In this document: positions 2,512-38,360 of the stretch, piece after piece
How positions within the stretch are numbered: position 1 is the first letter of the stretch
Layout: each line of letters begins with the position of its first letter
DNA from: Terriglobia bacterium
GTDB taxonomy: Bacteria > Acidobacteriota > Terriglobia > 20CM-2-55-15
Assembly (NCBI GenBank): GCA_965198225.1
Contig: CBDAOY010000007.1
Location: 990,045 to 1,054,044, forward strand
Reading direction: 5' to 3'
DNA: 64,000 nucleotides
Notes under the pieces: model-generated
What the model saw: only the letters and a program-made list of their open reading frames with translations
What the model was told of the DNA's origin: nothing
Database searches by the model: none
Translations under genes and position numbers: made by a program

Positions 2512-3000
2512 CTAGGCGGTCTTGCCTACATCAAGCCATCTGCGAATCGCTCTGGAGGCGTCGCGCCGGATGATCTCTTCCAAGTACGGCACGAGGCAAG
2601 CATACGGACGCCTCAGCCAGGGCGTGCCCTTCGGATCATCCCCCGCGAAGCCAAAGTCGATCCAATCCTCGCATCCCGCGAAATGTCCGCCCCGGCAGAG
2701 CCGACATATTCGCCAGCGTAGCTTGCTTTTCGCGCCCTGTCCGAGGACTAGGAAAGTCTTTCGTTCGGCCTGCAGCTCCCGAATCTGCCTGAGTTCGTAG
2801 CGAAGAGATTCGGACATCATGTCAATCGTGACAATGACGTGGGACGACAGGCGAACGCACTCGCGGACCAGCTCGCGCCATTTGTCGTCCGGTGCGATTA
2901 GCTTCGGAATTGGCATGGGTCTGGCGGCCAAGTTCAAGGTTGACGAGCCCAAGCCGATAACGGAACACCCTTGACCTCCGGCCACGTAGTTGGGGCGCAC
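2512..3000 (-). CDS. Hypothetical protein (162 aa), family not recognised
   Basis: This is the only ORF of plausible composition in the 1.5-kb gap between tkt and tRNA-Ser. No motif was recognised. Confidence 0.25.
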   Translation of the reverse strand: MRPNYVAGGQGCSVIGLGSSTLNLAARPMPIPKLIAPDDKWRELVRECVRLSSHVIVTIDMMSESLRYELRQIRELQAERKTFLVLGQGAKSKLRWRICRLCRGGHFAGCEDWIDFGFAGDDPKGTPWLRRPYACLVPYLEEIIRRDASRAIRRWLDVGKTA

Positions 3001-3161: not shown

Positions 3162-3248
3162 CGGAGAGGGTGGGATTCGAACCCACGGTGGAGTCACCCC
3201 CACACCGGTTTTCGAGACCGGCCTGTTCAACCGCTCCAGCACCTCTCC
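3162..3248 (-). tRNA. tRNA-Ser (anticodon CGA)
   Basis: The reverse complement folds as a cloverleaf: acceptor GGAGAGG/CCTCTCC with discriminator G, anticodon stem CCGGT/ACCGG with loop CUCGAAA (anticodon CGA), a long variable arm (GTGG..CCAC) typical of class II tRNAs, and T arm GTGGG-TTCGAAT-CCCAC. No CCA is encoded. Confidence 0.92.
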
Positions 3249-3402: not shown

Positions 3403-6400
3403 TCAGTCTTCGCCGCCTTTCCCGGACTTCTTGGACTTATCTGACTTTTCGGATTTGTCCGATTTGCCGGACTTGCCCGACTCCTCAGACTTGTTCGATT
3501 TTCCGGACTTGTCGGACTTACCCGATTTGTCGTCATCGTCGCCTTCGATGTCAGCCTGGATGCGGATCTCTCCCGAGTCGTTGCCGATCGTTAGGTTGAC
3601 CTCGACTGGATTCGAGATACTGTCCAGATTCACGGCCTCCGCCTCGACTCGAAAGTCGAAGGCGTCCGGACCCAGCTCGCGAATCCTCAGCTCCAGCTCG
3701 ATCCCGGCGACCTCGCCTTCAAACTCAAAGATGTCCGCACCACCCTTACGGCGGAACTCCAGCGAACCTGCCGGCAGCGTCAGTTCGAAGACGCCGATGT
3801 TCAGGACAACATCTTCCTGTGACGGGTCGATACCGTCGGAAGCGACGCCCAGCGTGAAAGCTTCCCGGAGGTCGAACTCGCCGTCCGCGCCCGTTTCAAT
3901 CTCAGCGACGGCGGCGAAATCGGCAAATATCTCTGGCTGCGTGTCGCGGATGGTGATCTCCACAGTGTCGTCGACGCAGTCGGAGCGAGAGTTGCAGGCC
4001 CGGAAGGCCGCCGAAACAATGGTATCCGCTCCCACCGACGGTGCGAGGAACGTTGCGCTGGCTCCCGACGTCTCGAAGACGCCGTCGCTGTCTGTGTCCC
4101 ATTCAAGAGTCAGGAACGACACATCGCCCCCTTCCGCGTGGGTAACAGTCCCGTTGAGCGCAATCGACTCTCCTTCGTCGACCTCGTACGGCCCCCCGGC
4201 ATCCGCCGTGATACCGGCGAGATCCTCGTCGCCGAACGTGTCCCCGGGAGCTACTGCTGCTATTTCGTTGCCGTCGGAGTCAACCACCCGAAGTGCAACG
4301 TTGCCCAGATTCTCGACCAGGAACTGTCCCAGCGGGGACTCGGTGACCTTGCCGATCCCGCCCGTCGGGATCGACACGAAGGTGTCAGCGCCGAAGCCGA
4401 CCTCGACTGGCCCACGGAGGACCTCTAAGGTCAGGGACCCGCACAGGAACTTCACGGCATCGTTCTGGTCCAGGTCCACTCCCTGGCCGCACGCCACGAT
4501 GTGCGCCTTTTCGGTCCCGCCCCTGGCGTTGGCGAACAACCCGTTTCCGAACGCGTCCCAAACCGTCACGTGCTGGTCCGCCCGGATCATTATGAAACCG
4601 GAACTAATCCCGTCGCTGAAATCGTCAGAAAAGGTCTGATCGGTGTCCACCTGGTCGATGATCCCGTCGCCGTCCCGGTCTTGCGGACCGATGGCCGTGA
4701 CGCGGCCCCCCACCCCAACGATGGCGCCGACCACCTTGTTCGAAACCGTCCCGTTTTCGTCCACCACCTCGATGACCTGAACGACGGACTCACTGGCCAC
4801 GTAGACCTTCGTCCCGTCCGGACTCACTGTGACGTCACTACCGAACGCCCCCGGCACTGCCGGGACGACGACGTCCTTGACGTTCGTGTCGATAACCGCG
4901 ACTCCAAACGGTCCCATCGCAACGTAGACGAGATGGCCATGGCCGTCTACGGGCTGCGGTGTCACGGCCAGATCGGACGGTACACCTCCAACGCTGATGT
5001 CCTTGACCTTCATGCCGTACTCACTGGTGTTCCTGTCAGCGCCGATGACGGAGACGGTCTTCGCGTTGGCAAAGGTATTCCCCACATAGGCCCACTGACC
5101 GTCGGGCGTCACGAGTACAGGACTGGGCTGGGTACCGACAACGATGTCGAGGGCCTCGGAGGTCTCGGTGTCGATCCGCGTGACCTTTTTCTGTTCGCGC
5201 CGGGTGGCGTAGACCTGAGTGCCGTCCGGGTGCACCGCCACACCGTCGAAGTTTTCCGCTGCTTTACCGGAATGTAAGACGGTCAGACCATGGGTCTCAG
5301 TGTCCATCACGTAGATGTCCGACCTGTTGCCACCCTGGTTGTCATTTTTGTCCTCGTGGACCACGACGAAGAGCTTCGTTCCGTCGGGGCTCACGACCAG
5401 TGCTTCGGGACCTGGTCCAACGACGTCCTCAACGGGGATAGGGACCTTGTGCACCTGTTTGGTGGCCGTGTCGAAGACCACAACGTTTTGGAGGTTGTTA
5501 AGGGAGTCCCGCTCGAGCCCATAGACTTCTGCCCCGTCTGGACGGACTGCGACGGCACCTGGCGCGCGATCAGTCAGGCCCGGCACAAGAGCTCCCGGCA
5601 CCGTTTCGGTGAGCAGGCAGTCATTGGCGGTGTCGATGATGCGGCCGTCGCCGGTATAGGCAAGCGGCCCGCCACCGCCGGTGCACGAAAGGGTGATCTT
5701 CGCGACGAACGCGTCGTTTCCGATTCCAGCGTTTGGCTGCAGCGTATTCCCCTCCTGCGGGAAGTTGGCGGATCCCGTTGTGCCGGCGACATAGACCTCA
5801 CCGAACGGGTTGACCGCGATACCGGAGCCCCTGTCGGCTCCGCTTCCTCCAAGGTAGGTGGAATACACGAGGTCTGTCCCGGAAAGGTTGAACTTGCTGA
5901 TGAAGGCATCGCAGAGCGTGCCATCGTGCAAGTGGGCTACGGGGTCCTCGGGTAGAGGGTCGACGAGTGGGAAACCGGTCATCGGGGCAGTCGTCGAGCA
6001 GCCCTGCCCGGTCACGTAAACGCCCGAGGGGTCTGCCGCGACAGCGTATCCGTAGTCGTCTCCCACGCCGCCCAGGAACGTGGAATACGTGAGATCCGCA
6101 CAGTTGTTGTACTGGACCTGTCCGATCGGGCAGCTCACGAAGGAGGAGTTGCCCGCGGACAGTGCCGCCACAAACACATCGTAAGTCCCACCGCCATGTG
6201 TCTCCTGGTAGGTGCCCGGAAAGCCGAAATTGCTGGAGGAGACAGGGAAGTCCATCGAAATGGTCTCTCCTGTGACCACGATTCCCCACGGACTGAAGGA
6301 TATGCCTCGCGCCAGGTCCCAGCTGGAGCCGCCCAGGTAGGTGGCATACTCCAGACGAGCTATCCCCTGGTTGTTTGTGCCCAGTTCGGCCAGAAAGGCG

Positions 6401-23282: not shown

Positions 23283-23301
23283 CACTGGTACAGGCCACTA
23301 G
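23283..23301. repeat. Solo copy of the right terminus of the 275-bp MITE-like element
   Basis: CACTGGTACAGGCCACTAG versus the element end CACTGTTACAGGCCACTAG (18 of 19). It directly abuts the ATG at 23302. Confidence 0.5.
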
Positions 23302-25374
23302 ATGACTCGACGAGAGCACGTTGACCTGAACTATCCCGAGTCGAGACGTGTCGATCAGGTCGACGACTATCACGGGCACCCCGTGGCCGATCCCTACCGG
23401 TGGCTCGAAGACATGGATTCGGATGAAACACGCAGCTGGATCGCGGCGCAGAACGAAATCACCGAACAGTTTCTTGATCGGGTGCCCGGAAGGAGCGAGA
23501 TCCTCCAACGCGTGACGGAGCTGTGGAACTTCGAGCGATTCGGGGTTCCGATCAGAGAGGGAGGACGCTACTTCTACTTCCGTAACAGCGGCCTGGAGAA
23601 TCAGGCCGTCCTGTACACGATGGAACAACTGGATGGCGAACCGCGCGTCCTTTTGGATCCGAACACGATGTCGGTGGATGGCACGCTCGCACTTGTGGCA
23701 TACGCGCCCAGCCGTGATGGAAGGTTCCTGGCCTACAGCGTGTCCACCAGCGGGTCCGACTGGCAGCATATACTCGTCCGCGACGTGGCCGGCGGAGCCG
23801 ATCTTGAGGACCGTCTCGATTGGGTCAAATTCTCGGACATTTCATGGACCGCGGACCACGAAGGCTTCTTCTACAGTTGCTACGACGCCCCTTCCGGCGA
23901 CGAATTCGCCGGCGAAAATTATTTCCAGAAGCTCTACTATCACCAGCTTGGAACTTCCCAGTCCGCAGATCGTCTCGTTTACGACAATCCCGACGAGCAG
24001 GAGTGGGGGTTCCTGGGTCACGTGACCGAGGACGGCCGTTACCTGGTCATTCACATCCGCAAAGGCTCGGGACCCAAACACTGCGTCTATTTCAAAGATC
24101 TCGACGAATCCGACGCCATGGACGATTGCGGGATCGTCAAACTGATGGACGGATTCGATGCGCGCTATGAGTTTGTCGGCAACGCTCGAGACGAGTTCTG
24201 GTTCCTTACCGATCGTGACGCTCCCCGTGCGCGGCTCGTGGGGGTCGACCTGGGACGAAGCGATCCGTCCCAGTGGCGGGAGATCATCCCGGAGGGTGAT
24301 GCCACGCTCGAGGCGGTCGTCGCGGCCGGCGAAGGCTTCGTCGCCCGCTTTCTCGAACACGCTCGCAGTCGAGTGGAGCTGTACGGTAGGGACGGCGGGC
24401 ATGTCCGGGAGTTGGAACTCCCCGGCATCGGGTCCGTAGTGGGTTTCTTCGGTAAAGCCGGCGGCACCGAAGCGTTCTACGCGTTTACGGATTTCACCAG
24501 TGCGCCAACCATTTACCGGTACGATGTCGCGACGGGTAAGAACGAGGTTTTCCGGAGTCCTCAGATCGACGTCGTGGGGAGCCGGTTCGAAACCCGACAG
24601 GTCTTCTACCAGAGCAGCGACGGAACGACGGTTCCGATGTTTCTCGTCCACCGGACCGACCTGGAGCTGGACGGGAACAACCCGACCCTGCTCTACGGTT
24701 ACGGCGGCTTCAACATATCGATGACCCCGGCGTTCTCCGTGCGCAACCTTGCCTGGCTCGAGATGGGCGGGGTTTATGCGGTCGCAAACATCCGGGGTGG
24801 CGGCGAATACGGTGAGGAGTGGCACCAGGCCGGAATCCGCCGCAACAAGCAGAACGGGATCGATGATTTCATCGCCGCGGCCGAATGGCTGACATCGAAC
24901 CGCTACACGAGCCCCAACCGCCTCGCGATCCACGGTGGGAGCAACGGCGGAATGCTCGTCGGGGCGTGCATGACGCAGCGACCCGACCTTTTCGCGGCTG
25001 TCGTGTCGGCGGTCGGTGTGATGGACCTGCTGCGTTTCGACAAGTTCACGATCGGATGGGCATGGCGCTCTGATTACGGGTCGCCGGACGATCCGGACGA
25101 CTTCAACATCCTCCGTGCCTGTTCGCCGTACCACAATCTACGAGAAGGAACAGAATACCCGGCGACGATGATCACCACCGGCGACCACGACGACCGTGTC
25201 GTCCCCTGTCACAGTTTCAAGTTCGCGGCAGCACTGCAGTCGGCGCAAGCCGCCAGGAGCGCTGCGGTGATACGGATCGGGGTCTCCGCGGGCCACGGCA
25301 TGGGTAAGCCGACTTCGATGCAGATCGAGGAGGCCGCCGACGTCCTGACCTTCCTCAAGCACTCGGTCATGTGA
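23302..25374 (+). CDS. Prolyl oligopeptidase (S9A family)
   Basis: N-terminus DDYHGHPVADPYRWLED. Catalytic region IHGGSNGGMLVGA and GDHDDRV. Confidence 0.9.
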   Translation: MTRREHVDLNYPESRRVDQVDDYHGHPVADPYRWLEDMDSDETRSWIAAQNEITEQFLDRVPGRSEILQRVTELWNFERFGVPIREGGRYFYFRNSGLENQAVLYTMEQLDGEPRVLLDPNTMSVDGTLALVAYAPSRDGRFLAYSVSTSGSDWQHILVRDVAGGADLEDRLDWVKFSDISWTADHEGFFYSCYDAPSGDEFAGENYFQKLYYHQLGTSQSADRLVYDNPDEQEWGFLGHVTEDGRYLVIHIRKGSGPKHCVYFKDLDESDAMDDCGIVKLMDGFDARYEFVGNARDEFWFLTDRDAPRARLVGVDLGRSDPSQWREIIPEGDATLEAVVAAGEGFVARFLEHARSRVELYGRDGGHVRELELPGIGSVVGFFGKAGGTEAFYAFTDFTSAPTIYRYDVATGKNEVFRSPQIDVVGSRFETRQVFYQSSDGTTVPMFLVHRTDLELDGNNPTLLYGYGGFNISMTPAFSVRNLAWLEMGGVYAVANIRGGGEYGEEWHQAGIRRNKQNGIDDFIAAAEWLTSNRYTSPNRLAIHGGSNGGMLVGACMTQRPDLFAAVVSAVGVMDLLRFDKFTIGWAWRSDYGSPDDPDDFNILRACSPYHNLREGTEYPATMITTGDHDDRVVPCHSFKFAAALQSAQAARSAAVIRIGVSAGHGMGKPTSMQIEEAADVLTFLKHSVM

Positions 25375-25413: not shown

Positions 25414-25688
25414 CTAGTGACCTGTAACAGTGCTATCGGTACCAGCGTTCGGCGGAACGGCGTCGGATTCTAGGAGTGACGCCCGAGCCAATGCTGTTTC
25501 ATTGCGAGGGCGTTACGACACCGAAGACGGCGCCGTTCCGACGAACCCTTCGGGCCGATGGGGGTTGCGGGCGATCTCTTTGTCGGAAGCCGTCACCGAT
25601 GAAAGAGCATCGCTTTCCGTCTCCCTCCTCGACCTCGCCCGCAAGACCCATCGGCGATGGTGCCGATAGCACTGTTACAGGCCACTAG
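25414..25688 (+). mobile_element. 275-bp MITE-like element with ~30-bp terminal inverted repeats, copy 1
   Basis: CTAGTGACCTGTAACAGTGCTATCGGTACC ... GGTGCCGATAGCACTGTTACAGGCCACTAG (28 of 30 complementary). It has internal long hairpins. It matches 34705..34979 at 271 of 275 positions by eye, in the same orientation. Confidence 0.7.
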
Positions 25689-34704: not shown

Positions 34705-34979
34705 CTAGTGACCTGTAACAGTGCTATCGGTACCAGCGTTCGGCGGAACGGCGTCGGATTCTAGGAGTGACGCTCGAGCCAATGCTGTTTCATTGCGAGG
34801 GCGTTGCGACACCGAAGACGGCGCCGTTCCGCCGAACCCTTCGGGCCGATGGGGGTTGCGGGCGATCTCTTTGTCGGAAGCCGTCACCGATGAAAGAGCA
34901 TCGCTTTCCGTCTCCCTCCTCGACCTCGCCCGCAAGACCCATCGGCGATGGTGCCGATAGCACTGCTACAGGCCACTAG
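34705..34979 (+). mobile_element. 275-bp MITE-like element, copy 2
   Basis: Same element as 25414..25688, with four substitutions. It starts 22 bp after the stop codon of the deacetylase gene. Confidence 0.7.
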
Positions 34980-35073
34980 GGTCCTTCTGGTTGTGGTACC
35001 TCGCCGTCCGCTTGCTATAATTGCGACTCTCCAGTCACCCAGAGAAGCGTATGCCGTTCGGCAGGTTGTCAGG

Positions 35074-36888
35074 ATGGAAGAAGAGAAGCTCGACGAAATC
35101 TTGAAAGGACAGGACGAAGCGCCCGTCGTCGAAGAGAAGCTGCGCACGCCGATGACGATTCTCTTCAGCGACATCAAGGGGTCGACCGCGTACTTCGAAC
35201 GGTATGGCGACGTCGAAGGGCTCGCGATGGTCCAGCGCCACAACGATCTCCTGTTTCCCTGCGTCGAGAACAACCACGGTCGGATCATCAAAACGATCGG
35301 CGATGCGATCATGGCGCTTTTCAACAATCCTGTTGATGCCATGAAGGCGGCAGCCGCCATGCAGCGCTCACTGTTCGACGACCGGAGCAACCGGTCGGAA
35401 TCGCAACGGGTCCACATCCGCATCGGCCTTCACACCGGCTTGGGATTGATGCAGGACAACGACGTGTTCGGCGACGTCGTCAACGCCTCGGCCAGGGTAC
35501 AGAGCCAGTCCGAACCCGACCAGATACTGATCACCGACAGCCTGCTGCATGCCGCCGAGACGGCCGGCATGCAGGTGGGTAAGCTCGGGCGGGCCCGGAT
35601 GAAGGGTAAGGATGAGCCGATCGACATCTACGCGGTGGCCTGGTCCGGGTGGGCGACCCAGCAGTTGATCGACGAGCTGCAGAGGAAGTTCGACGGTGCG
35701 TTGAGGGGGGCGAAAGAGAGACACAAGGCCCTGGAGGAAGAATTCGACGCCGCCCGCGACGGGTGGCGTGATGAACGGCGCCGTCTAAACGCCGAAGTCG
35801 AGCGCCTCGAGGAAGGTGCTCTCGACGCGATGGAAACGGCGCGAAACCAGGTATCCGAAGAGTTCCAGAAACAGCACCAGTTCAAGCAGGAAGCGACCGA
35901 CAAGGCCCGCGGGCAGGCCGAGGAGGATCTCAAAGGCACTCAGGAACGATTCGAGGCCGAGCGCGTCTCACTGAAGGCTCAGATCGCCAACCTGGAGGGG
36001 CGCCTCGTCGAAGCGATGGAGCGGAGCAACAACCCTGCGCGGGCTGCGACCCAGATTCGAGAACAGGTTCAAACGCGGTTGGACCAGGCCAAGAAGGAAT
36101 GGCAAGCCCAGTGGGAAGTCGAGCGGAAAAGGCTGGAAGCCGAGATCGAGAATGCAAAGACTGCCGGTCAGCCCAAGGATCCGATGGCCGAGGCGCGCCG
36201 GTTGATGATGGAGAAAATCAAGGCCAAACAGGAGGGCCGGGAGCCGGGCACACCGGGCGCCGAACTGGCCGCTGCGAAGGAAAAAGCGGAGAAAGAGCGT
36301 GACGAACTGCAGGCTCGCGTCGCGGGTCTCGAAAAAGAGGTCCAGAATGCCGAGGAAATAATCCGCCAGGAGGTTTACAACGACCTGCGTCACAAGTACG
36401 ACCAGAAGCTCGAGGCCGCGGATCGGATCAAGAAGCAACTTCAGCACGAAGTCCAGTCGCTCTCCGAGCAGCTCCAGGGCGAACGGGAGTCGCTTTCAGC
36501 GAGAATCAATCAGCTCGAAGCGGATGTGTCCGAGGCTGAGAACGCAGCCCGCGTCCAGGCGTCGGCTGAGGTCCGTTCCGACTACGAAAGCAAACTCGAC
36601 GACGCGGAGCGCGCGCGCTCCCGGCTGGAACGCCGCCGTCAGGAAGCCGTCGAAGAGATGGAACTGGAACGTTCCCGCCTGGAGAAACAGGTGAAGACCC
36701 TCGAGGCCGGCGTGCAGGAGGCCCGTGAAATGGCCTTCAAACGATCAAGCGATCCGACGATCGAGGAGCTCAACCGGTTGAGGCATCACCTGGAAGAAGA
36801 ATTTCGCGAGAAGACCGCTGCGTGGGAAGACGAGAAGCGCCACCTGCTGGAAAAGATTGCCCGCCTCGAAAACCCTGAAGGCGATTGA
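35074..36888 (+). CDS. Class III adenylate/guanylate cyclase domain fused to a ~450-aa coiled coil
   Basis: MTILFSDIKGSTAYFERYGD..IKTIGDAIMALF..RIGLHTG. This is followed by E/R/K/Q-rich heptad-like sequence. I prefer the ATG at 35074, because the track start at 34948 lies inside the MITE-like element. Confidence 0.8.
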   Translation: MEEEKLDEILKGQDEAPVVEEKLRTPMTILFSDIKGSTAYFERYGDVEGLAMVQRHNDLLFPCVENNHGRIIKTIGDAIMALFNNPVDAMKAAAAMQRSLFDDRSNRSESQRVHIRIGLHTGLGLMQDNDVFGDVVNASARVQSQSEPDQILITDSLLHAAETAGMQVGKLGRARMKGKDEPIDIYAVAWSGWATQQLIDELQRKFDGALRGAKERHKALEEEFDAARDGWRDERRRLNAEVERLEEGALDAMETARNQVSEEFQKQHQFKQEATDKARGQAEEDLKGTQERFEAERVSLKAQIANLEGRLVEAMERSNNPARAATQIREQVQTRLDQAKKEWQAQWEVERKRLEAEIENAKTAGQPKDPMAEARRLMMEKIKAKQEGREPGTPGAELAAAKEKAEKERDELQARVAGLEKEVQNAEEIIRQEVYNDLRHKYDQKLEAADRIKKQLQHEVQSLSEQLQGERESLSARINQLEADVSEAENAARVQASAEVRSDYESKLDDAERARSRLERRRQEAVEEMELERSRLEKQVKTLEAGVQEAREMAFKRSSDPTIEELNRLRHHLEEEFREKTAAWEDEKRHLLEKIARLENPEGD

Positions 36889-38305: not shown

Positions 38306-38360
38306 GGTCTTCTTCCTTCGAGGCAGAATCGCCGCATTCTCCTCTAATCGTGACGAGTGA

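Follow-up and report, generated by a model that had tools for sequence, protein, structure and literature searches.

A mobile inverted-repeat element with a conserved, covarying interior in a Terriglobia bacterium

The window analysed here is a stretch of 64,000 nucleotides from a Terriglobia bacterium of the Acidobacteriota (contig CBDAOY010000007.1 of assembly GCA_965198225.1), and it carries two copies of a small non-coding unit of 275 bp. The unit is a mobile element: it is present or absent at orthologous sites in both directions when the window is compared with its relatives. It is very likely a miniature inverted-repeat transposable element (MITE), a non-autonomous DNA transposon that is mobilised by an IS630-type transposase encoded elsewhere. 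MITEs normally have conserved terminal repeats, and their interior is filler. The element belongs to an ordinary kind, and what is unusual about it is a conserved, covarying interior that is shared behind different ends. Its presence is a sign of recent transposition in a Terriglobia lineage that has not been cultured. An earlier reading of the window, made from the sequence alone, had proposed a MITE-like non-autonomous transposon or a structured RNA. The first proposal is borne out by many copies in related genomes, by presence/absence polymorphism, and by insertion sequences (ISs) with similar ends.

Mobility, copies and architecture

The mobility of the element can be read from filled and empty sites. 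The window is not derived from the related metagenome-assembled genome (MAG) CBDAPB01, and orthologous stretches of the window and the related MAG are 89-96% identical in DNA, with flanking proteins at 85% and 93%; the two are thus distinct and similar enough for orthologous sites to be compared. The site of copy 1 is empty in three relatives (L235, L236 and L237; L numbers denote the loci used for comparison), where the intergenic region measures 116 bp and has a single CTAC, against 386 bp in the window. The site of copy 2 is unoccupied in L240 and L241, and its flanks join there as gagcatcCTGCCgtccttctgg. The DNA of the relatives that lack copies 1 and 2 is ~90% identical to that of the window. 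The opposite case is found at about 38350, where an unoccupied target site of the window (38340..38360, strand not assigned) reads GAC-GA-G-TGATCAC and the MAG reads gac-TA-[element]-TA-g-tgatcac, with a diverged copy in place (L105:6849-7123). A second filled site in L105 showed an extra indel relative to the window, and it was unusable as an empty-site comparison.

A further site in the window has a longer history. A solo right end of 19 nt, with one mismatch, lies at 23283..23301 (+) and adjoins the ATG at 23302 of a prolyl oligopeptidase gene. In L235 and L236, a full element stands exactly at this site and adjoins the same ATG. The interior of the window's version was lost between two CACT microhomologies (…gcttCACT followed by agtgacc … atagCACT followed by gttacagg…). 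From these sequences, the solo end is a decayed remnant of an older, independent insertion. The sequence-only reading had described the oligopeptidase gene as bracketed by element ends, an arrangement that has no functional meaning now that one bracket is known as such a remnant. In L235 and L236 (~2720-3000; window 23283-23304), the CTAG of the full element immediately precedes the ATG, so any ribosome-binding site for that start would be inside the terminal repeat.

The copy number of the family is considerable. MAG CBDAPB01 holds at least 17 copies with 97-99.6% identity on 13 contigs, and it also contains truncated copies, solo ends, and two copies that have diverged further (79% and 83%). 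The genome scan covered one genome per species with a 16-base part of the terminal repeat, and its counts are lower bounds. The 110 matches listed by this pattern are mostly due to chance, and the real family was found in three Terriglobia MAGs. All 96 independent insertions that could be placed are intergenic according to our own open reading frame (ORF) caller. Insertions occur in either orientation, and with the same crude caller, no bias is seen relative to co-directional neighbours (16 in the same direction vs 21 opposite). The element therefore combines the properties by which MITEs are recognized, namely a small non-coding body, terminal inverted repeats, a TA duplication at filled versus empty sites, and many dispersed copies of high identity.

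The simplest rival explanation is a local duplication of an immobile intergenic segment, and it could appeal to the window itself, which has only two copies, in the same orientation and within 10 kb. Its probability is practically nil. Related genomes contain dozens of copies at loci that are unrelated to one another, metagenomes add more than 100 related elements, and presence and absence at orthologous sites are precise, with the target duplicated. The sequence-only reading had named such a duplication as the outcome that would overturn it, and the further copies, the orthologous sites, and the ISs with similar ends have already refuted it.

Copy 1 with its flanking target duplication spans 25414..25688 (+). 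The element proper runs from G to C at 25417-25685 and is 269 bp long (275 bp with flanks); the duplicated TA lies at 25415-25416 and 25686-25687, where an outer C and G complete CTAG. The left terminal inverted repeat (GTGACCTGTAACAGTG; 25417..25443, +) is the 5' side of the terminal stem P1 and the presumed transposase-binding end, and the right one (25659..25685, +) is the 3' side. Between them, the minimum free energy (MFE) fold predicts a first hairpin, arm 1 (25447..25546, +), with conserved GTT/AAC closing pairs and the conserved motifs GGAT.C.AGG and CGAGG. A CC-TTCG-GG mini-hairpin (25547..25554, +) follows within the invariant linker AACCCTYCGGGC (25544-25555). The second hairpin, arm 2 (25556..25654, +), reads GGGGGTTGCGG...GATG-loop-CATC...CGCAAGACCC and is the best-conserved part of the superfamily described below. 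Copy 2 with its flanking CTAG lies at 34705..34979 (+; element proper 34708-34976), on the same strand as copy 1 and 98.5% identical to it, which amounts to four differences in 275 bp. The terminal inverted repeats are 30 bp long with two mismatches. In these respects (two 275-bp copies with four differences, the 19-nt solo end, the 30-bp repeats, and the two internal hairpins), the sequence-only reading was correct throughout. Five occurrences of the terminal 19-mer are found in the window, where shuffles give an expected number of 0.01, and a profile built from the family and run on the window detected no copy beyond copies 1 and 2.

No ORF is conserved across the families related to the element; frames and start sites differ, and the window's own family (family A) is without the ORF seen in others. 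A coding reading, based on a minus-strand ORF (M..HRRRR..PATP.RPKG.GG), was rejected, as this ORF recurs only where indels happen to be absent and does not occur in family A.

Target site and candidate transposases

About 100 elements with defined ends are available, and nearly all of them read TA-G...C-TA. Where the flanking tetramer is imperfect (CTAA, CTAC, TTAG, cTAt), the base that differs is the outer C or G, and both sides retain TA. Empty sites carry a single copy of the target (CTAC or CGAG), as opposed to C-TA-[element]-TA-G at filled sites. Since TA is constant, the outer base is variable, and the target is single at empty sites, these alignments show a duplication of TA, a preference for CTAG as the target, and an element proper that extends from G to C. 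The earlier reading had hesitated between CTAG as a part of the inverted repeat and CTAG as a 4-bp duplication of the IS5 type. Neither applies, and a TA duplicated within a CTAG target points to IS630. Both ISY100 and IS630 duplicate TA, and IS630 favours TA within 5'-CTAG-3' (PMC2170065, citing Tenzen & Ohtsubo 1991).

Mobilisation by an IS5-group transposase with a 4-bp CTAG (YTAR) duplication is very improbable. It would account for CTAG at both ends of most copies, a CTAG-flanked IS1182/IS5-like element is present in a related MAG (L003:5479-7023), and one related family has 3-bp TNA flanks, which are a feature of some IS5-family groups. However, the imperfect tetramers keep TA and vary in the outer base, the first and last bases of the element are invariably G and C and complete CTAG by themselves, and the terminal repeats are like IS630-family ends and unlike the IS1182-like ends GGAGTCTGCGCGG. 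The IS1182/IS5-like element in L003 is 1545 bp long, with a 441-aa ORF (DDE_Tnp_1 + DUF772) and ends GGAGTCTGCGCGGCAGA, and its start coincides with the junction of a MITE copy that has diverged. An end similar to it (GGAGCCTGCGCCG) comes after an IS630 copy in L041.

The preferred source of mobility is an IS630-type transposase, and several CTAG-flanked ISs of this family have ends that resemble those of the MITE. The best-defined one is a 1209-bp IS at L141:157-1365 with a single 363-aa ORF that matches DDE_3 (E = 2.4e-24) and HTH_32/29/23; its ends read C-TA-GTGTCCTGTATCAG… and …CTGATACAGGACAC-TA-G. Three copies of a relative occur in L231-L233, with the left end GTCTCCTGTATCAGAAATAAC and the right end GTCTCCTGTAACAGTGGTTCG. 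Over its first 18 bases, the MITE end GTGACCTGTAACAGTGCTATCG has 15-16 in common with the right ends of these ISs (GTCTCCTGTAACAGTGGTTCG in L231-L233, GTGTCCTGTATCAGTGATTCG in L141). The left end of the IS, in turn, agrees at 18 of 21 bases with the repeats of another MITE family of the superfamily (GTGTCCTGAGTCAGAAATAGC), and the ends of an IS630 copy in L210 resemble those of two further MITE families. The IS630 copies with similar ends come from Acidobacteriota-type metagenomes. The L141-type transposase has at least 8000 relatives, some of which are named IS630 family transposase and come from Thermoanaerobaculia or Acidobacteria. The core of the MITE bears no resemblance to the sequence inside the IS630 copies, and for this reason, the MITE is not a simple deletion derivative of such an IS.

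From IS630 biology and the similarity of the ends, mobilisation by an IS630-type transposase is most likely. An IS630/Tc1/mariner-family DDE transposase, encoded elsewhere in the genome, would bind the terminal inverted repeats over ~16-30 bp, excise the element, and insert it into a TA dinucleotide, preferably within CTAG, with duplication of the TA. The absence of a transposase gene from the window, noted in the sequence-only reading, holds for relatives of the IS630-family transposases found elsewhere, none of which is encoded there according to tblastn; other transposase families were not searched in the window.

Some observations weigh against an IS630-mobilised MITE. Relatives read CTGCC at the site of copy 2, a less clean site without TA, and the window's own empty site has the dinucleotide GA instead of TA. 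No transposase with exactly matching ends was found in the window or in 280 kb of related-MAG sequence, and the best ends, with 15-16 of 18 bases, belong to other organisms. The IS630 copy in L041, which is the one in a related Terriglobia MAG, has more distant ends. A search for a full-length element with family A ends returned only solo ends (L024, L080 and L029). An exact partner would be an intact IS630-family copy that ends in GTGRCCTGTAACAGTG beside TA.

The choice of target has consequences in a genome that avoids CTAG. The window contains 24 CTAG sites where 226 are expected from base composition, a depletion of ~9-fold, compared with 529 GATC and 620 TCGA. Elements account for seven of the 24. 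Most CTAG sites of the window are intergenic or located at stop codons. For 22 of the 96 insertions, a flanking predicted gene has its stop codon in the junction TAG. As an element with G...C ends is inserted into C-TA-G, each insertion would rebuild CTAG at both junctions; a TAG stop codon used as a target would therefore be left intact, and two new preferred targets would be made. Because CTAG is scarce and is rebuilt at junctions, the junctions form a sizeable share of the preferred targets. Regeneration of CTAG is thus a simple way for an element to spare TAG stops and to seed its own insertion hot spots.

Two new targets per insertion would explain why elements, mini-elements, and IS630 copies abut one another. 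The IS630 copies in L141, L182, and L231-L233 adjoin MITEs, with CTAG in common. Altogether, direct contact with a MITE was seen for five of eight IS630-family copies (L141:1366-1640; L182:215-453/455-; L231-L233 around 1420 and 2625), and in L233, MITE ends are located on both sides of the IS. CTAG also flanks palindromes of 17 bp (TGRCCTGTAACAGGYCA) that are made up of the two outermost ends of the element (L059:4875-4900, L043:2805-2830, L045:1285-1304). Those in L043 and L045 adjoin full copies and share the CTAG with them, and the one in L059 stands alone. These palindromes may represent minimal elements, or they may have been left behind by an internal deletion or by excision. Family A also has an internal CTAG in arm 1 (GGATTCTAGGAG; window 25470-25473 and 34761-34764), where most other families read GGATGCAAGG; it would be a potential target for nested insertions.

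Among known bacterial elements, the closest likeness is offered by elements that use TA. RUP (repeat unit of pneumococcus), which is mobilised by IS630-Spn1 and is 107 bp long with short repeats, is likewise a non-coding MITE with IS630-like terminal repeats that inserts at TA, is intergenic, and tends to land next to or within other mobile elements (PMC2229807). RUP has no reported internal structure or function motif, whereas the present element has 269 bp, 30-bp repeats, and a branched, covarying interior. It shares with IS630 and ISY100 the duplicated TA and ends that start right after it, and it differs from them by a dissimilar interior and by having no transposase gene. Small size, TA flanks, and terminal inverted repeats also characterize Correia/NEMIS of Neisseria and ERIC of enterobacteria, whose transcripts form long stem-loops and can affect the processing and stability of mRNA when they are co-transcribed with genes nearby (PMC2229807). 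However, they are single hairpins of 100-155 bp, each restricted to one bacterial group and without sequence similarity to the present element, which has a Y-shaped fold and a core that occurs behind many terminal repeats in soil and marine metagenomes. The REP/REPIN sequences resemble the element as abundant intergenic palindromic repeats, often just after genes. REPs are palindromes of 20-40 nt with a conserved tetranucleotide head and no target duplication, and they depend on an IS200/IS605-like tyrosine transposase (RAYT). This architecture is incompatible with 30-bp terminal repeats, a TA duplication, and IS630-like ends, and identity with the REP/REPIN-RAYT system was rejected; no RAYT was seen, and no search aimed at one was made.

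A conserved core behind different ends

The element is one member of a larger group. A second MITE family (family B) came to light while weak matches to arm 2 were being checked. It occurs in a related Terriglobia MAG and has different terminal repeats (CAGCCCGTGGCAGAAGTCTGATGG) with the same CTAG flanks, architecture, linker, and arm 2 motifs. Its copies are located at L043:2161-2443 (-), L059:2134-2409, L082:~4310-4600, L053:7351-7638, L078:6177-6448, and L080:6924-7200 (-), and it is absent from the window. At L087:5087-6794, two family B repeats lie 1708 bp apart around a frameshifted IS256-like (Transposase_mut) gene, an arrangement that probably arose when an IS256-type insertion disrupted a family B element.

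Beyond these families, the core was found in at least 120 metagenome stretches from JGI and other assemblies by means of the shared linker pattern AACCCTYCGGGCNNNNGGGGGTTGC; viral contigs scanned with the core linker pattern gave no match. The common layout is TA, a variable terminal repeat, GCGTT, arm 1, AACCCTYCGGGC, arm 2, the repeat again, and TA. At least seven types of terminal repeats can be distinguished; a core match with no detectable repeats is either a deletion variant or situated at the end of a contig. The mean pairwise identity among families rises from 27% (flanks) to 51% (terminal repeats), and it amounts to 64-66% for arm 1 and 64-76% for arm 2. By these alignments, conservation is stronger in the interior than in the terminal repeats, the sole part for which a transposase has a known need. 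No description of the element family turned up in literature searches, and the group is apparently a widespread superfamily that has not been described before. Many copies lie at contig ends, and the element thereby explains contig breaks in soil and marine metagenome assemblies.

One further family (GTACTCAC...; ends GTACTCACTTTCATAAATAC) has the same core and 3-bp TNA flanks (L113, L129, L167, L184, L204, L218, and others). The flanks are TAA/TAA three times and TTA/TTA twice, the second of these by eye (L113), and the remainder differ by one base. Such flanks imply a CTNAG target. The GTACTCACTTTCATAAATAC ends resemble those of the IS630 copy in L210, though a 3-bp duplication would be unusual for IS630-type elements.

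The unit in the window is predicted to fold into a Y shape with a 30-bp terminal stem and two hairpin arms of ~100 nt. The MFE is -167.7 kcal/mol (z = -12.9) for the + strand and -162.6 kcal/mol (z = -12.5) for the - strand. An alignment of 34 diverse superfamily members was used for the analysis of covariation, and its consensus fold is the same Y. Standard pairs fill 93.9% of the paired cells, compared with 73.1% in shuffles and 35-43% with slid partners. Changes on both sides are seen in 65 of 88 pairs versus 45.6 in shuffles, and none of 500 shuffles matched any of the observed covariation measures. In the main helix of arm 1, 17 of 21 pairs have changes on both sides; in the family alignment, this is the case for 28 of 30 pairs of the P1 stem. 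The covariation test that the sequence-only reading had suggested thus came out in favour of the fold, and its suggested Rfam scan gave no family match.

The same core behind many repeats, its higher conservation, and the retention of its helices by compensatory changes indicate that the interior is not filler. Its role can be weighed in several ways. The first is a functional structured RNA, either a mobile non-coding RNA gene or a cis-acting RNA, which rides on IS630-type ends and whose stem and arms are RNA helices. The very strong covariation in every helix speaks for it, as do the asymmetric conserved internal loops and the conservation of the core beyond that of the terminal repeats. On the + strand, the invariant linker reads as a UUCG or UCCG tetraloop (UNCG), with its Y position occupied by T in 93 copies and by C in 53, and one conserved G.U pair (G181.U259) is found in 18 of the 34 sequences. 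Nevertheless, we regard this explanation as quite unlikely. On the - strand, the linker can equally be read as a C-GNA-G triloop, and DNA mini-hairpins with such triloops are stable. The consensus folds of the two strands are equally good (alifold -256.6 vs -252.5), the apical loops are unconstrained, with no GNRA/UNCG enrichment on either strand (3 vs 2 of 21), and the orientation relative to flanking genes is unbiased. A scan of the copies for sigma-70-like promoters and intrinsic terminators found neither. Rfam matches to the element, even at E <= 10, are only chance matches of the microRNA type, and 20 loci with diverse members gave none at E <= 1. The RNA alternative of the earlier reading therefore stands as far as a strongly covarying fold is concerned and fails to gain support from strand or orientation bias, promoter, terminator, or Rfam family. 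In covariation screens, the element will show up as a false "structured RNA".

Two apparent signals were rejected during the analysis. In the RNAalifold structure, the + strand has more G.U pairs than expected for a symmetric fold, and this surplus largely vanishes when only pairs predicted for both strands are counted (82 G.U on the + strand vs 58 A.C). The purine-rich internal loops of arm 1 could pair with the pyrimidine-rich ones of arm 2 in the crossing manner of a pseudoknot, with ~77% complementarity (alignment columns 85-93 with 190-198, and columns 115-123 with 242-250). This pairing was dropped, as covariation is restricted to one column pair (91/192, A-T vs C-G).

A second explanation denies the fold any function. 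Template switching or hairpin-templated correction in quasi-palindromic DNA, combined with the youth of the families, would keep the helices, and the core would be shared by descent with repeated swapping of the terminal repeats. This is possible, with a probability clearly below even. It agrees with a structure that is equally good on both strands, as DNA palindromes would give, with the recent origin of within-genome copies that are 97-99% identical, with the persistence of arm deletion variants, and with the about equal conservation of paired and unpaired core columns. It has difficulty with the non-complementary internal loops that are conserved in all families (TCGTCGTCG opposite CCTCCTCCTCG in arm 2, and the purine-rich loops in arm 1), which template switching should perfect or erase, and with an interior that is better conserved than the terminal repeats.

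The third possibility is that selection acts on the element itself. The lineage of the element may have been selected to keep the Y fold, which may promote mobilisation or make insertions harmless; in the latter case, read-through transcripts from either direction would gain a self-contained stable structure. Such element-level selection for a compact, strand-symmetric structure is the preferred view of the fold, put forward with low confidence. Variants that lack the tip of arm 1 or the tip of arm 2 exist at several loci, which means that the whole fold is unnecessary for persistence. ISY100 requires only its 24-bp repeats in vitro (PMC2170065), so IS630 transposition has no known need for internal structure. 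Both facts count against the proposal. If the fold does promote mobilisation or render insertions harmless, the superfamily would be a clear example from bacteria of selection having shaped the interior of a MITE. A bolder version, which we consider unlikely, sees the Y core as a functional RNA or a single-stranded or cruciform DNA module that would boost mobilisation or act on transposase or host expression. It would have been captured repeatedly by IS630-type ends, and possibly by a 3-bp-duplicating transposase, so that the selected unit would be the cargo and not the repeats.

Neighbouring genes and minor observations

The genes that flank the elements of the window are mutually unrelated and encode a prolyl oligopeptidase, a solute-binding protein, a deacetylase, and a cyclase. 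Copy 1 follows the prolyl oligopeptidase stop codon at a distance of 39 nt and precedes the next ATG by 72 nt, and copy 2 is located 21 nt past the stop codon of the deacetylase gene; the placement of both copies just after a stop codon had been recognized in the sequence-only reading. The longest ORF of the cyclase begins at an ATG within copy 2 (34948; region 34948-35077). In relatives without the element, the surroundings of the ATG at 35077 are conserved (…caggATGgaagaaga…), and there is no ATG at 35052 in the MAG relative L240; by this comparison, the true start of the cyclase is probably 35077. The sole Rfam match in the window at the gathering score is a tRNA gene at 3162-3248 (-; 57.9 bits). 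A TATAAT-like box lies at about 35017, ahead of the cyclase ATG at 35077.

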